A stretch of DNA of 7,409 nt, taken from the IMG/VR virus record IMGVR_UViG_2548876944_000011; one strand, written 5' to 3'. Under the pieces are notes generated by a model that did no database searches, was not told the origin of the DNA, and saw only the letters and a list, made by a program, of their open reading frames with translations. The stretch is from a virus. Taxonomy: Duplodnaviria > Heunggongvirae > Uroviricota > Caudoviricetes. This document shows positions 145 to 6,435 of the stretch, piece after piece. Position numbers and translations under genes: made by a program. Positions within the stretch are counted from its first letter, which is position 1; every line of letters begins with the position of its first letter.

Positions 145-300
145 TCACTCACCTGAGTTTCTTTCCAGCCAGCGACGGGCACCATTTTCGGTTTTAAACG
201 TTTTGCTTTTGGTATACGTCATTGCGGTGAACGTGCCGTCCTGGTTTGGAAACACGCCGTACACCAGAGATTCGTTGTTGCCAAGATCGATAGTATCCAT
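145..300 (-). CDS. ydfA: YdfA-like small prophage protein, 51 aa (first gene of the dicB operon)
   Basis: The track ORF 145..378 is 77 aa, but the internal ATG 300..298 has GAGG 6-7 nt upstream and gives MDTIDLGNNESLVYGVFPNQDGTFTAMTYTKSKTFKTENGARRWLERNSGE. The longer 5' extension would run into the predicted promoter -10. Stop TGA 147..145. Confidence 0.6.
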   Translation of the reverse strand: MDTIDLGNNESLVYGVFPNQDGTFTAMTYTKSKTFKTENGARRWLERNSGE

Positions 301-377
301 GCTGACCTCATTTCCCCTTAACGCTGGGGTAGCGGAACTGTTTGCTGAGAACACCGTGCGGTGTGTTGATGCAAACA

Positions 378-406
378 AGATTAGCCATGACTAACATATC
401 GGTCAA
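378..406 (-). promoter_or_regulatory. sigma70-like promoter of the ydfA-ydfB (dicB) operon
   Basis: Read on the minus strand: -35 TTGACC (406..401), 17-bp spacer, -10 TAATCT (383..378). It lies about 70 nt upstream of the ydfA ATG. The operator copy at 381..395 sits in the spacer and -10. Confidence 0.4.
381..395. promoter_or_regulatory. operator-like site, copy at the dicB-operon promoter
   Basis: Minus-strand reading GTTAGTCATGGCTAA. It matches the site at 926..940 in 14 of 15 positions. Inverted half-sites GTTAG and CTAAC are separated by 5-6 bp. It overlaps the predicted -10. Confidence 0.5.
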
Positions 407-444
407 GTGATTTTGTATGCTATAGCTAACATAATTGATGTGGT

Positions 445-475
445 AAAAGATAACTCATTGATGATGTTATCTTTT
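445..475. terminator. perfect 10-bp inverted repeat at the 3' end of dicA (hairpin, possible bidirectional terminator)
   Basis: AAAAGATAAC (445..454), 11-nt loop, GTTATCTTTT (466..475). The dicA stop codon (469..467) lies in the right arm. The T/A runs flanking the GATAAC/GTTATC core could act as U-tracts on either strand. Confidence 0.35.
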
Positions 476-874
476 ATTTGTCCGCTGACGGGCTTTTAGT
501 AATTCTTCAAAGAGTTTATTGAAGTTTTTTACTCGAGCTCGCATTTCGGCGAGCTGGGTATCCTGTTCTGATTCTGGCAGTGCATTAAACAGCTCAAGGA
601 GCTCTAGTTCTTTGGGGGATAAGGCAACTGGCTTCTCAACAGGTGGTGTTGGTTGCTTGTCTTCATCGCCAAATAGAATCCATGTTGGTGAGCATTGCAA
701 TACTTTGCTGAGGGCAAAAAGGTTCTTCCCTGTAGGTTCACTATCACCCCGTTCCCATTGTGATACAGACACATGGGAGATTTTCAGGGCTTTAGCAAGA
801 GACCTTTGGGTGTGTTTGAGGTTTTTCCGACGATACCTGATGCGTTCGCCGATAGTTAAATTTTTTGTTTCCAT
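467..874 (-). CDS. dicA: cI/C2-like HTH (XRE-family) prophage repressor DicA, 135 aa
   Basis: Track ORF METKNLTIGERIRYRRKNLKHTQRSLAKALKISHVSVSQWERGD..., with an N-terminal HTH. It is divergent from a cro-like gene. Recognised from memory as DicA. No obvious Shine-Dalgarno precedes the ATG, so it may be translated from a near-leaderless mRNA like lambda cI. Confidence 0.9.
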   Translation of the reverse strand: METKNLTIGERIRYRRKNLKHTQRSLAKALKISHVSVSQWERGDSEPTGKNLFALSKVLQCSPTWILFGDEDKQPTPPVEKPVALSPKELELLELFNALPESEQDTQLAEMRARVKNFNKLFEELLKARQRTNKR

Positions 875-875
875 A

Positions 876-890
876 GTTAGCTAATGCTAA
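876..890. promoter_or_regulatory. weaker operator-like site next to the dicA start codon
   Basis: GTTAGCTAATGCTAA has the same GTTAG...CTAA outer half-sites as the other two copies (10 of 15 identical overall). It lies 2 bp from the dicA ATG, where an autoregulatory site would be expected. Confidence 0.3.
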
Positions 891-896
891 ATCGTA

Positions 897-925
897 TTGA
901 CTATGTTTTTGTTAACATCTATCTT
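897..925 (+). promoter_or_regulatory. sigma70-like promoter Pc for dicC and the early-right operon
   Basis: -35 TTGACT (897..902), 17-bp spacer, -10 TATCTT (920..925). It is followed directly by the operator at 926..941 and by the dicC Shine-Dalgarno and ATG at 958. Confidence 0.5.
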
Positions 926-941
926 GTTAGTTATGGCTAAC
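926..941. promoter_or_regulatory. operator, copy at the dicC promoter
   Basis: GTTAGTTATGGCTAAC, with inverted 5-bp arms GTTAG/CTAAC around a 6-bp centre. It abuts the -10 of Pc. It is nearly identical to the minus-strand site at 381..395. Confidence 0.5.
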
Positions 942-957
942 AATAAAGGTGTTTTAA

Positions 958-1188
958 ATGCTTAAAACTGACGCTCTTTTGTATTTCGGTTCAAAAACAA
1001 AACTTGCACAAGCAGCAGGTATTCGTTTGGCTTCGCTTTATAGCTGGAAAGGGGATTTAGTTCCCGAAGGTCGCGCGATGCGTCTACAGGAGGCATCTGG
1101 CGGGGAGCTTCAGTATGATCCCAAAGTTTATGATGAATATCGTAAGACGAAGCGGGCGGGGCGGTTGAACAATGAAAATCACTCCTGA
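958..1188 (+). CDS. dicC: Cro-like small DNA-binding regulator DicC, 76 aa
   Basis: Track ORF MLKTDALLYFGSKTKLAQAAGIRLASLYSWKGDLVPEGRAMRLQEASGG... It is divergent from dicA, with AAGG 8 nt upstream of the ATG. Recognised from memory as DicC. Confidence 0.85.
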   Translation: MLKTDALLYFGSKTKLAQAAGIRLASLYSWKGDLVPEGRAMRLQEASGGELQYDPKVYDEYRKTKRAGRLNNENHS

Positions 1189-1693
1189 ACAGGCTCGTGA
1201 GGCTCTGGATGCCTGGATATGTCGACCAGGAATGACACAGGAGCAGGCGACGATATTAATCACTGAAGCATTCTGGGCTTTGAAAGAGCGCCCGAACATC
1301 GATGTTCAGCGTGTCACATATGAAGGTGGCGCGATTGATCAGCGAGCGCTTGGCGTTAATCGAGTGAAGATATTTGAACGCTGGAAGGCTATCGACACCA
1401 GGGATAAGCGTGAAAAGTTCACGGCGCTAGTGCCTGCAATTATGGAGGCTATCCGGATTAATGATTTCAGGTTGTATCGTGAAATTACTGACGGAAAAAG
1501 CATCACGTGCATGATCGCCGGGTTAAACAAAGAATATGGCGATGTGGTGGAGTCCGGACTGCTTTTTGCTGATCCTGCCGTAGTGGATCGTGAAACTGAC
1601 GAACTTATAGAAAAAGCAATTGCTTTCAAACTTGCGTATCGACAGCAATACCAACAAAAAGCTGGATGGAATTATGAGCCTTCTTTTTGCTGA
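1172..1693 (+). CDS. YdaT-like prophage early protein, 173 aa (family reported as a functional analogue of lambda CII)
   Basis: Track ORF. The ATG overlaps the dicC 3' end by 17 nt, suggesting translational coupling. The central segment WKAIDTRDKREKFTALVPAIMEAI resembles the conserved REK...L.PAI region I recall from Rac YdaT. The family assignment is from memory, not a search. Confidence 0.7.
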   Translation: MKITPEQAREALDAWICRPGMTQEQATILITEAFWALKERPNIDVQRVTYEGGAIDQRALGVNRVKIFERWKAIDTRDKREKFTALVPAIMEAIRINDFRLYREITDGKSITCMIAGLNKEYGDVVESGLLFADPAVVDRETDELIEKAIAFKLAYRQQYQQKAGWNYEPSFC

Positions 1694-3102: not shown

Positions 3103-3455
3103 GTGCACCGGCAACCATTCTTGATATGTGCTGTGGCAGCCGCATGTTCTGGTTCGATAAGTCTGACGAACGGGCGATATTCAGCGATATCAGAAAAGAA
3201 GGATACACATTACGCAATGGGAGACGCTTGATTATCAGCCCTGACATTATCGCAGATTTTCGTGCATTATCATTTGCAGACGCATCTTTTTCGATGGTTG
3301 TATTAGACCCTCCGCATCTTGAGAGTGTTGGTGATAACGCCTGGATGGGAAAGAAATATGGACGGCTGAATAAAGATGCCTGGCGTGATGATTCGCGACA
3401 GAGATTTAAAGAAGCCTTTCGGGTGTTGAGGCCGCACGGCGTTCTGATTTTTTAA
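3099..3455 (+). CDS. class I SAM-dependent methyltransferase-like protein (DPPH motif), 118 aa as read; probably truncated by an in-frame TAA
   Basis: Track ORF with a GTG start coupled to the upstream stop. It has a motif-I-like ILDMCCGSRMF, an acidic residue after the second strand (IFSDI), a catalytic-type tetrapeptide VVLDPPHL, and RVLRPHGVLIF. The fold is incomplete at the TAA (3453..3455). The same frame continues for 29 sense codons (WNETQIPVSQILALTDRKPVICQRTGKKR) to TAA 3543..3545. Confidence 0.6.
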   Translation: MSAPATILDMCCGSRMFWFDKSDERAIFSDIRKEGYTLRNGRRLIISPDIIADFRALSFADASFSMVVLDPPHLESVGDNAWMGKKYGRLNKDAWRDDSRQRFKEAFRVLRPHGVLIF

Positions 3456-4353: not shown

Positions 4354-4607
4354 ATTAATGGATTAACTATGTCGGTTAAACGACCAGCCAACTGAAAAAG
4401 CGGAAACCTGATTACAGGTTGCCAGATAAGGCAATGAGCTACCTGGCGCGGAACGGACTGATAAGTATGGGGAATGTTTTACGATGAACCTTTAGACTAA
4501 AGAGTTTGTAACGCTATGTAAGTGATTTTTTCTGGTTTAGATATTTATATGTCCGGCCAAATTGAGGTGTGTTTAAATGTAATTGCACATTGATTGTAGG
4601 AGGAATA

Positions 4608-4787: not shown

Positions 4788-5093
4788 ATACAGCGAACTC
4801 CATTGGTTTAGTTGGATATTTACTGTGCTGGACAAAAACGGTTTGCGGGGAAATCTTAGTTAAGTAGAATGACTGCGGGTGCTTGAGGCTATCTGCCTCG
4901 GGCATGGACACCAACGGCAGATAGAGAAAAGCCCCAGTTAACATTACGCGTCCTGCAAGACGCTTAACATTAATCTGAGGCCAATTTCATGCTAGACACA
5001 TGTAGGTTAGCCTCTTACGTGCCGAAAGGCACGGAGAAGCAGGCTATTGTTAACACCAAGCTGTAATGTCCCCTTTGAACCATTCTAAAATGT

Positions 5094-5121: not shown

Positions 5122-6435
5122 ATGATCAAAGAGACTGTTACGATGAGTCATAAGGAACTCCACCGACTTCAGATTATTCAGGAACAAGCTGCGGCACGCA
5201 TTGGCATTTCTATTCGGCAGGTTAAACGTCTGGTGCAACGGTATAGAAATGAAGGGCCTTCTGGTCTGGTTTCCCACCGACGTGGAAAGCGTCCTAATAA
5301 TTCCTTTTCTACTGAATTCAGAGCAACAGTAATTTCACTCCTCAAAGGCCGTTACGCTGATTTTGGACCTACGTTTGCGTGCGAAAAATTGCGCGAGATA
5401 CACGGTTTATCTTTATCCGTTGAAACTCTCAGAAAGTGGATGATAGAAGAGGGGTTATGGCGTGAACGCCGTCGTAAAATTGCCCGTATATATCAACGCC
5501 GCATGCGACGACCATCTTACGGTGAACTGATCCAGATTGATGGCTCACCTCATGACTGGTTTGAAAATCGAGGCCCCAGATGTACACTGATCGTTTTCAT
5601 TGATGATGCCACCAGTGCGTTGATGGCGTTGCGTTTTGTGCCTGCTGAAACAACCCGGGCTTACATGGAAACCCTCCGGGGTTACCTTAATGATCATGGC
5701 GTACCGCTCGCTCTCTACTCTGATAGACACAGTATATTCAGGGTAAATAACCCAGAGCGGGAAGGTGAGCTGACCCAGTTCACTCGTGCGATAAAGACAC
5801 TGGGCATCGAGCCAATCCATGCCAACAGCCCGCAGGCAAAAGGGCGGGTAGAGCGCGCCAATCAGACACTACAGGACAGGCTGGTCAAAGAAATGCGGCT
5901 TCAGAATATCAGTGATATTGAAACAGCAAATGCATGGTTGCCGACCTTTATTGAAGCCTATAACAACCGGTTCGCTACGTCGCCTCGTACTACTGATAAT
6001 GCTCATCTTGATGTGCACCATTCTGAAGAGGAACTGGGTTATATCTTCAGCCTACAGGCGAAGCGCGTTCTGTCTAAAAATCTCACTTTCCAGTACAAAA
6101 GCAGTGCGTTTCAGGTACGCAGTGAGGGCCGGGGATATCGACTTAGGCATTCGGTTGTTACTGTATGCGAGAACTTTGACGGTGAAATTAACGTTCTGTA
6201 TGACGGGAAAGCGCTGGGCTGGGAAAAGTATGTTGATGGCCCGGAGCCTATACCACCGGATGATGAAAAGAGTGTCCATGAACGAGTGGATAATGCCCGT
6301 ATTGATTTACGCTCAAAATACTATGTTAAACCTAAAGCTGACCATCCCTGGCTTACGCGCCGAACGCAAAGTCATCAGCAAGTTAAGCCCCCGAAGTTAC
6401 CTAAAAAGAAGCCTGATCCCGATAAAAAAGATTGA
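5122..6435 (+). CDS. DDE transposase with an integrase-core (rve-type) fold, 437 aa; IS481-like or ISNCY-like, family not assignable by eye
   Basis: Track ORF. N-terminal HTH region (RIGISIRQVKRLVQRYRNEGPSGLVSHRRGKRP). Candidate catalytic triad in QIDGSPHDW, LALYSDRHSIF and NSPQAKGRVERANQTLQDRL. Basic lysine- and proline-rich C-terminal tail. Confidence 0.85.
   Translation: MIKETVTMSHKELHRLQIIQEQAAARIGISIRQVKRLVQRYRNEGPSGLVSHRRGKRPNNSFSTEFRATVISLLKGRYADFGPTFACEKLREIHGLSLSVETLRKWMIEEGLWRERRRKIARIYQRRMRRPSYGELIQIDGSPHDWFENRGPRCTLIVFIDDATSALMALRFVPAETTRAYMETLRGYLNDHGVPLALYSDRHSIFRVNNPEREGELTQFTRAIKTLGIEPIHANSPQAKGRVERANQTLQDRLVKEMRLQNISDIETANAWLPTFIEAYNNRFATSPRTTDNAHLDVHHSEEELGYIFSLQAKRVLSKNLTFQYKSSAFQVRSEGRGYRLRHSVVTVCENFDGEINVLYDGKALGWEKYVDGPEPIPPDDEKSVHERVDNARIDLRSKYYVKPKADHPWLTRRTQSHQQVKPPKLPKKKPDPDKKD

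Follow-up and report, generated by a model that had tools for sequence, protein, structure and literature searches.

A palindromic motif at both early promoters of a Qin-type prophage as the probable operator of the DicA/DicC immunity switch

A prophage repressor gene that stands between two early promoters raises the question of whether one and the same operator serves both of them, and which bases make up that operator. In the stretch of DNA analysed here (7409 bp, hereafter the window), the original prediction had pointed to a 15-mer repeated on either side of the repressor gene dicA, in the form GTTAGTCATGGCTAA on the minus strand (395..381) and in the form GTTAGTTATGGCTAA on the plus strand (926..940), and had read it as the repressor's binding site. 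Both copies are exact matches to the pattern GTTAGTYATGGCTAA, and direct comparison bears out their agreement in 14 of 15 positions. A weaker third copy was likewise found at 876..890 (GTTAGCTAATGCTAA), with 3 mismatches (12/15). We consider it very probable that these repeats are operators of the DicA/DicC immunity switch of the Qin prophage, at which DicA dimers exclude polymerase from both early promoters. The presence of repressor sites at this locus is already known: the first description of operators dates from 1988, and the validation of one of them from 2012.

The dicA locus and its regulators

The segment 1..1700 of the window is 100% identical to Escherichia coli 042 (NC_017626.1), where it is annotated with ydfB, ydfA, dicA, dicC and a YdaT-family gene. 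The Qin-type prophage to which it belongs there has dicB, ydfD, an integrase gene and an exonuclease gene as well. As compared with Qin of K-12, the 042 prophage retains more phage genes (int, xis, exo and replication). The dicA-dicC-dicB region is one and the same locus in the two prophages, and across 300..1000 (701 bp) K-12 MG1655 differs from the window by only 2 SNPs, at positions 708 and 936. The gene identities and the layout around the switch, including the positions of dicA, dicC and ydfA-ydfB, were as first proposed (Table 1). dicA and dicC are divergent, and the intergenic region between them measures 83 nt.

DicA matched the Pfam family HTH_3 (1.3e-16), and only HTH families were among its matches. 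Structures of the N-terminal domain of P22 C2 (1ADR, 2R1J and 3JXB) were matched with E = 8e-20, 2R1J and 3JXB being complexes of this domain with DNA, and residues 7-71 of DicA are approximately 59% identical to it. DicC matched Pfam P22_Cro at 44.1 bits (cut-off 30.2). Pfam-type family matching revealed no peptidase/autocleavage domain (C-terminal S24) in DicA, and the protein is reported to have no Ala-Gly cleavage site, the antirepressor Rem acting instead (PMC10448788). Because of its length of 135 aa, its matches to HTH families alone, the missing Ala-Gly site and the action of Rem, DicA is assigned to the non-cleavable, antirepressor-controlled subclass of repressors. The AT-rich hairpin at the end of dicA has a folding energy of -11.4 kcal/mol (z = -5.6), and its stem is longer in a divergent clade through changes at 455 and 463-465. 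This hairpin is a candidate for a weak terminator, which may shield dicBp from dicA read-through.

Table 1. Features of the dicA region, in window coordinates
Feature	Position	Strand	Description
ydfA	145..300	-	ydfA-ydfB form the start of the dicB operon, left of dicA
dicBp (PL-like, putative)	378..406	-	-35 TTGACC 406..401; spacer 400..384 (17 nt); -10 TAATCT 383..378
OL1 (predicted operator)	380..395		plus strand ATTAG-CCATGA-CTAAC; minus strand GTTAGTCATGGCTAAT
OL2 (predicted operator)	415..430		GTATG-CTATAG-CTAAC; 8/10; absent from the original list
AT-rich hairpin	444..476	-	spans the dicA stop codon; 11-bp arms, 100% complementary
dicA	467..874	-	repressor, 135 aa; N-terminal HTH like P22 C2
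Oa	876..891		GTTAG-CTAATG-CTAAA; 1 nt from the dicA ATG (874)
dicC promoter (PR-like)	897..925	+	-35 TTGACT 897..902; 17-nt spacer; -10 TATCTT 920..925
Weak middle site	901..916		CTATG-TTTTTG-TTAAC; 6/10; from a sequence scan
Oc	924..943		core 926..941 GTTAG-TTATGG-CTAAC; extended 20-mer TTGTTAGTTATGGCTAACAA
dicC	958..1188	+	Cro-like regulator, 76 aa

Operator-like palindromes at the two early promoters

A search of the window with the pattern GTTAGTYATGGCTAA, allowing up to 3 mismatches, gave 5 matches as compared with 0.32 expected, and none of 200 dinucleotide shuffles reached this count. Two of the five matches are reverse-strand readings of two palindromic sites; since matches fall on both strands, the element is a palindrome. 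Its symmetric core is GTTAG-N6-CTAAC and the true unit spans 16-20 bp. Thus the repeat described as a 15-bp unit is real, but the symmetric unit is 1 base longer (380..395 and 926..941). With no more than one half-site mismatch, this core occurs 3 times in the 7409-bp window, and all three occurrences lie in the dicA flanks. We compared the counts in these flanks, which comprise 249 nt of non-coding DNA, with those in 5000 shuffles. The mean of the shuffles was 0.008 for palindromes with at most one mismatch, and no shuffle reached 3. When two mismatches were allowed, the flanks contained 4 palindromes (at 380, 415, 876 and 926) against a shuffle mean of 0.12, a number again reached by none of the 5000, and the remainder of the window contained a single such palindrome, at 3152 in coding sequence. 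The half-sites score 10/10 at 926..941, 9/10 at both 380..395 and 876..891, and 8/10 at 415..430. The copies listed in the original prediction are therefore all present, but its site map was incomplete, lacking OL2 at 415..430 and the weak Om at about 901..916. The figure of 14/15 is incidental, since the mismatch sits in the strain-variable spacer: the two copies agree in 13/15 positions in K-12, and the higher value was read here because 042 carries G936 in the spacer of Oc.

On the rightward side, the hexamers of the dicC promoter were picked up by a promoter scan. The published account gives dicC a consensus sigma-70 promoter with a start mapped by 5'RACE and a -10 overlapped by Oc (PMC3441716). 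In the window, Oc begins inside the dicC -10, taking up its final 2 nt, and extends over the dicC transcription start. Yun et al. 2012 (PMC3441716) cloned 5'-TTGTTAGTCATAACTAACAA and named it Oc, and we found this sequence to be the reverse complement of K-12 924..943. The stretch 924..943 thus agrees with the tested 20-mer at 20/20 positions in K-12 and at 19/20 in the window, the difference being spacer position 936 (G in 042, A in K-12). When Oc was placed ahead of a heterologous promoter, DicA-dependent repression was observed in vivo, and a single A->C half-site change abolished it (PMC3441716); this change corresponds to window position 928, within the GTTAG arm. In the same study, high-copy cloning of the region selected single-base changes that clustered in Oc, and the only gel shift, which succeeded, was carried out with crude extract and a 90-bp dicA-dicC fragment, DicA being mostly insoluble (PMC3441716). 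Reg-Seq also recovers the DicA site at dicC (PMC7567609). The plus-strand copy put forward as a DicA site is accordingly the published Oc, with DicA-dependent repression in vivo (PMC3441716).

Two further sites on this side, Om and Oa, were predicted from sequence and named by Bejar 1988, and are reported not to bind DicA alone in vivo (data not shown; PMC3441716). By position, we assign the site at 876..891 to the published Oa as the most likely match. It is almost invariant in 52 haplotypes of Qin-type loci (see below), its spacer included, and the scanned relatives of the GTTAG type and the PPompW type have it in the same place, at a distance of 1-2 nt from the start codon. The third copy of the repeat is thus conserved at the dicA start, but its reading as a stand-alone DicA site is weakened by the reported lack of DicA binding to it alone (PMC3441716). 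On the dicA strand, a -10-like TAGCAT lies inside Oa at 889..884, and relatives have TAGAAT or TAGTAT in the same place. No Shine-Dalgarno sequence was seen ahead of dicA. Since Oa adjoins the ATG, no Shine-Dalgarno sequence is seen and the hexamer is kept in these forms, the arrangement suggests that the dicA message may be nearly leaderless, with a predicted start at 875..878 and its -10 inside Oa, by analogy with lambda PRM/OR3. The centre of the weak site at 901..916 is 25 bp from the centres of both Oa and Oc. This site is invariant in the 52 haplotypes, has a better copy in PPompW (CTTAGGTTTCTCTACG), and is probably the published Om. The PR side, then, has two clear operators and a 6/10 middle site.

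On the leftward side, the hexamers of dicBp were read from the sequence; the promoter scan, whose threshold they do not reach, did not list them. The GGTCAAG at 401..407, in the -35 region, is invariant across the 52 haplotypes, and a similar promoter geometry is found in relatives (TTGCCA-17-TAATCT in Citrobacter, TTGCAA-17-TAACAT in Serratia and TTGACC-18-TAAATT in PPompW). The start of the dicB-operon transcript is predicted at about 372..370. OL1 lies within the 17-nt -35/-10 spacer of dicBp, most of which it fills, and takes in 4 nt of the -10. Among the 52 haplotypes, no change is seen at 381..384 or at 391..396, and at position 380 a single haplotype has G where the other 51 have A. OL2 lies upstream of the dicBp -35, at a distance of 8 nt, and is 35 bp from OL1, centre to centre; its left arm (GTATG) is degenerate. 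Beyond these two clear sites, the PL side shows only a 6/10 candidate at 439..454. As cited in PMC10448788, Bejar, Bouche & Bouche 1988 proposed three operator sequences for the dicA-dicC region and likewise three for the dicA-dicBp region.

The control of dicC and dicB by DicA, which had been taken as established, is in agreement with the published repression of dicC and dicBp. Deletion of dicA raises dicBp-lacZ expression 22-fold, in a bistable, dicC-dependent switch (Ragunathan et al. 2023, PMC10448788), and a 10-fold decrease in dicA leads to ~700-fold more dicC RNA and ~3700-fold more dicB RNA (PMC3441716). The proposal that the copy at the dicB promoter is an operator gains support from its kept position, its invariant half-sites and its co-variation with Oc in a heteroimmune clade. 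These features support the view that OL1 and OL2 may be the DicA sites at dicBp. The leader of the dicB operon (301..371) gave no Rfam hit, a folding z of 0.3 and an automatic consensus fold of 4 pairs only. Its conservation is at the sequence level only, and a structured RNA in 301..371 was dropped as a candidate in view of the missing Rfam hit and the unremarkable folding energy.

Comparison across relatives and the competing readings

DicA loci were drawn from phage records, viral contigs and metagenomes as well as from species-representative genomes. The locus occurs in roughly 800 complete E. coli genomes. The Qin-type set comprised 81 loci with 52 distinct haplotypes, in which DicA is at least 93% identical. 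Phage hits obtained by tblastn, together with mosaic E. coli hits, supplied the distant DicA types. A profile search of viral contigs for distant DicA loci returned the same close relatives; a DNA-pattern scan of viral contigs gave the same contigs again, and a scan of the genome collection gave 6 loci only. Across the 52 haplotypes, Oc and OL1 show no variation in their TTAG/CTAAC arms, and the central AT and the -35 hexamers of both promoters are likewise constant.

More distant relatives were found in Citrobacter (DicA identity 73%), Serratia (59-64%, according to the measure used) and the Stenotrophomonas phage BUCT709 (59%). All three have four GTTAG..CTAAC-type sites at matching offsets from dicA, namely 52 and 2 nt upstream, 37-43 nt downstream of the stop codon for OL2 and 72-77 nt downstream for OL1. 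In Serratia, OL1 is inverted, still within the -35/-10 spacer. OL1 is also present in PPompW-type and BL21-type relatives, at +111 nt after the dicA stop in PPompW. The distance between Oc and OL1 in the window is 546 bp, exactly 52 helical turns. This phasing was rejected as evidence of looping, as the corresponding distance differs between relatives, being 551 bp in Citrobacter, 541 bp in Serratia and 530 bp in BUCT709.

The DicA/DicC switches of the PPompW/O157:H7 and BL21 types resemble the present one in their four-site architecture, with similar offsets and a homologous leader. The PPompW type differs in being heteroimmune, in having CTTAG/CTAAG arms and in having SQA rather than TQR in its repressor. 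In this clade the strongest sites carry the altered arms, Oc being CTTAGGAAAATCTAAG and OL2 ending in CTAAG, and partial versions are seen in OL1 (TTTAGAATAGCCTAAG) and Oa (ATTAGGTAATTCTAAT). Since the CTTAG/CTAAG arms occur in Oc and OL2 alike, the outer arm base shifts jointly on both sides of the repressor gene. The BL21 type retains GTTAG/CTAAC arms with different spacers, and phiES15 has sites of the CTAAC-N4-GTTAG type on both sides. Helix 2 begins with T-Q-R in the four repressors with G-type arms and with S-Q-A in the C type, which is only a hint that the helix-2 arginine may read the outer G of the arm. Similarity at the DNA level to the prophages of the heteroimmune PPompW type breaks off at 371/372, the predicted +1 of dicBp, and the transcribed dicB-operon leader past this point is common to different immunity types. 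The position of the break places the operators and promoter hexamers in an exchangeable immunity module.

In the mechanism that we favour, the operator unit would be the 16-bp palindrome GTTAG-YYATRR-CTAAC, bound by a DicA dimer in which each recognition helix would read one TTAG/CTAA arm while the centre would be read indirectly. A dimer on Oc would cover the -10 end and the start of the dicC promoter and so block RNA polymerase; by the published account, DicA at Oc also activates dicA. At dicBp, one dimer would occupy OL1, within the -35/-10 spacer and over part of the -10, and a second dimer would be bound to OL2 directly upstream of the -35. Oa may act as an OR3-like site, through which DicC, a Cro-like protein with predicted binding, or an excess of DicA would shut off dicA.

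Several other readings of the repeats were weighed against this mechanism. Sites with up to two half-site mismatches are in themselves not unusual in the whole window, where 26 of 300 shuffles reach the observed 5, which might suggest that two 15-mers in AT-rich non-coding DNA are alike by chance. However, no shuffle reached the counts of the 15-mer (0/200) or of the flank palindromes (0/5000), and the position of the sites is kept across genera; chance similarity is refuted by these data, and we give it a negligible probability. It is also highly improbable that the motif is kept as a part of the promoter, with TAAT/TAAC resembling a -10, and not as a repressor site. The CTAAT arm of OL1 does provide 4 nt of the putative -10 TAATCT, and Oa contains its own -10-like hexamer, but at the dicC promoter the palindrome lies downstream of the -10, at dicBp it lies within the spacer, and in the case of OL2 it is found on the upstream side of the -35. 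Because of these three different placements relative to the promoter hexamers, the motif is not itself a promoter element. In addition, both arms of the palindrome are conserved symmetrically, and one arm mutation in Oc kills DicA repression on a heterologous promoter (PMC3441716).

A different proposal accepts that OL1 and OL2 are conserved and supposes that they serve mainly DicC, YjdC or H-NS/Cnu, with DicA acting indirectly or from Oc. This proposal would fit the Reg-Seq paper, which gives the location of DicA at dicB as unknown (PMC7567609), as well as the reported enrichment of YjdC at the dic locus in ChIP-qPCR and the reported influence of H-NS/Cnu. It would also fit the behaviour of Oa and Om, which look like Oc and yet reportedly do not bind DicA alone (PMC3441716). 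On the other hand, OL1 shares 9/10 half-site positions with the validated Oc, its spacer obeys the YYATRR rule as that of Oc does, and the half-site changes track the repressor type on both sides, which argues against another factor. We regard this proposal as unlikely and prefer the reading of OL1 and OL2 as predicted DicA operators.

Spacer variability and relation to known switches

The spacers of Oc, OL1 and OL2 all follow YYATRR, and the four outer positions of each (12 columns) are all polymorphic, by transitions only. The variable positions are those at +/-2 and +/-3 from each dyad, and the arms and the central AT are fixed, apart from a single exception in the CTAAC arm of OL2 among the 52 haplotypes. 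Mean nucleotide diversity was 0.339 in the spacer columns, as compared with 0.093 at dicA third codon positions and 0.078 at other non-coding positions. On a tree built from all columns other than the spacer columns, the latter took 72 parsimony steps (6.0 per column), against 0.39 per column at dicA third positions, and the rate of change of the outer spacer bases was about 15 times that of dicA synonymous sites. The seven most homoplasic of 710 columns were all spacer columns. All four gametes were seen in 12/18 column pairs within operators, as compared with 2/40 adjacent biallelic synonymous pairs, and 8 of the 52 haplotypes differ from another one at spacer columns alone. Of the two SNPs that separate 042 from K-12, the one at 936 falls in an outer spacer column, and metagenome contigs contain the same spacer variants. 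The spacers of Oa and Om were without variation, and the PPompW clade varies much less.

Nearby unconstrained non-coding positions are also fast, with 3-6 steps each; for this reason relaxed constraint accounts for a part of the spacer variability, but not for its excess over synonymous sites. Recombination was rejected as the origin of the within-operator pattern, as all four gametes occur between columns no more than 5 bp apart, and a Dcm/Vsr or restriction-site cause of the transitions was rejected in view of the lack of a CCWGG context. We propose tentatively, as a possibility that we rate well below an even chance, that the outer spacer bases are sites of recurrent mutation, either because selection retunes operator affinity or because repressor-bound DNA is a mutational hot spot. 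Affinity tuning through non-contacted operator bases is known in vitro for P22 and 434.

The locus shares with P22-like lambdoid switches the divergent repressor and cro genes, an HTH repressor, a Cro-family regulator, and one palindromic operator type that is found at both early promoters and overlaps promoter elements. As in P22 immC, the repressor gene lies between leftward and rightward early promoters, each with related palindromic operators. In our own comparison of the P22 motif TTAAG-N4-CTTAA with TTAG-N6-CTAA of DicA, the TTA of the arm is equally far from the dyad. On an 18-bp palindrome, the P22 repressor makes its contacts with the outer bases, and it tells six operators apart by four non-contacted central base pairs (PMC4267663), and the conserved arms and variable centres of the DicA operators resemble this discrimination. 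DicA differs from the P22 repressor in its short, unrelated C-terminal half, lacking the RecA-cleavable peptidase, and in its induction by Rem (PMC10448788). The P22-consensus operator ATTTAAG-N4-CTTAAAT had two 3-mismatch matches in the window, no excess over chance (22/200 shuffles). These matches, at 942..959 in the dicC leader and at 4561..4578, are off the promoter hexamers and off all five operators, and P22 operator specificity was ruled out for the switch, the consensus being absent beyond chance.

The likeness to lambda extends to the action of a repressor on both PR and PL, to its positive control of its own gene from a PR-adjacent site, to a predicted Cro-like shut-off of that gene, and to a putative OR3-like site at a repressor gene whose leader is short or absent. 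The centres of Oa, Om and Oc are 25 bp apart, as compared with 23-24 bp for lambda operators. The two systems differ in that the proteins are not orthologous in detail, the operator sequence is another one and there is no SOS cleavage; moreover, one PR-side site alone has been shown to bind DicA, and the two clear PL-side sites are 35 bp apart.

The lambdoid organisation of the dic locus has been recognised since 1986-1988, and Oc is a textbook-level, database-curated site, so that our data bring no conceptual change. What they add is a base-resolution, comparatively supported prediction of two operators and of the promoter hexamers at dicBp, and these predicted sites give the exact positions to mutate in existing dicBp-lacZ reporters. 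A further gain is the unexplained hypervariability of the spacers of Oc, OL1 and OL2. The genes dicB and dicF are under the control of this switch, and when they are derepressed, cell division stops and phage susceptibility is altered. If selection underlies the spacer changes, they would adjust the set-point of this toxic-gene switch, in a cell with ~20 DicA molecules that are shared by co-resident prophages.

Operators and repressor types

Among near-identical prophages, we noticed that transitions had repeatedly hit the outer spacer positions of the operators OL1, OL2 and Oc. The parsimony estimate was 6.0 steps per column at these positions, as compared with 0.39 at dicA third codon positions, and four-gamete violations were found within 5 bp in the outer spacer columns. 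The arms and the central AT of the three operators were unchanged, apart from one exception in the CTAAC arm of OL2. Unlike these operators, Oa and Om had invariant spacers.

In Serratia rubidaea (DicA locus L006, 1963..1978), the OL1 equivalent was identical to the E. coli 16-mer. It occupies the strand opposite to that in E. coli, relative to dicA, and the inverted site still lies within the spacer that separates the -35 and -10 of the leftward promoter, TTGCAA-17-TAACAT. We also observed that repressors with GTTAG operators, in which the outer arm base is G, have an HTH helix 2 that opens with T-Q-R (DicA residues 21-24). The PPompW/O157 type, with CTTAG arms, has S-Q-A at the same helix 2 position (DicA loci compared: L009, L304 and L011), and the recognition helix, AHVTISQWE, was identical among the PPompW, BL21 and BUCT709 types.

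Features of the immunity region and of the remainder of the window
Feature	Position	Strand	Details
Outer spacer positions	OL1 385, 386, 389, 390; OL2 420, 421, 424, 425; Oc 931, 932, 935, 936		spacer = YYATRR
dicB-operon leader	301..371	-	about 70 nt, CATCAACACACCGCACGGTGTTCTCAGCAAACAGTTCCGCTACCCCAGCGTTAAGGGG...
Inverted repeat	444..476		perfect, 11 bp, TAAAAGATAAC/GTTATCTTTTA; across dicA stop codon
Oa/dicA start region	875..891	-	end of Oa 1 nt from ATG
YdaT-family gene	1172..1693		overlaps dicC end by 17 nt (1172..1188)
sok (hok/sok antitoxin RNA)	4877..5048	+	Rfam match, 104 bits, E = 1.7e-23

Start and end of dicA

A Shine-Dalgarno sequence is absent upstream of the dicA ATG, and a -10-like TAGCAT (889..884) lies inside Oa, where relatives carry TAGAAT or TAGTAT at the same position. 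Together with the proximity of Oa to the ATG, these sequence features suggest that the dicA mRNA is nearly leaderless and that its -10 lies within Oa, an arrangement resembling that of lambda cI, PRM and OR3. The dicA promoter has no recognisable -35, which is compatible with activator dependence.

The RNA of the inverted repeat, on the dicA strand, folds at -11.4 kcal/mol (z = -5.6), and the stem is longer in one divergent clade through changes at 455 and 463-465. This hairpin, which lies upstream of the dicB-operon promoter dicBp, is a candidate terminator for dicA.

Leader, rightward operon and sok match

The dicB-operon leader is common to different immunity types, with a recognisable counterpart in Citrobacter, Serratia, phiES15 and BUCT709; directly upstream, the promoter and operators differ by type, and similarity to the PPompW type ends at 371/372. 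The leader gave no Rfam match and its folding energy was unremarkable; it may have a nut- or put-like role.

The sok-matching stretch has neither an annotated gene in the 042 record nor an intact hok-sized ORF, and it directly precedes an ISNCY-family transposase ORF (5122..6435). This stretch is probably what remains of a hok/sok system.

Since the YdaT-family gene overlaps the dicC end, the rightward operon runs from a cro-like gene through a ydaT-like gene to replication genes, an order shared with prophages of the Rac and CP-933P type.
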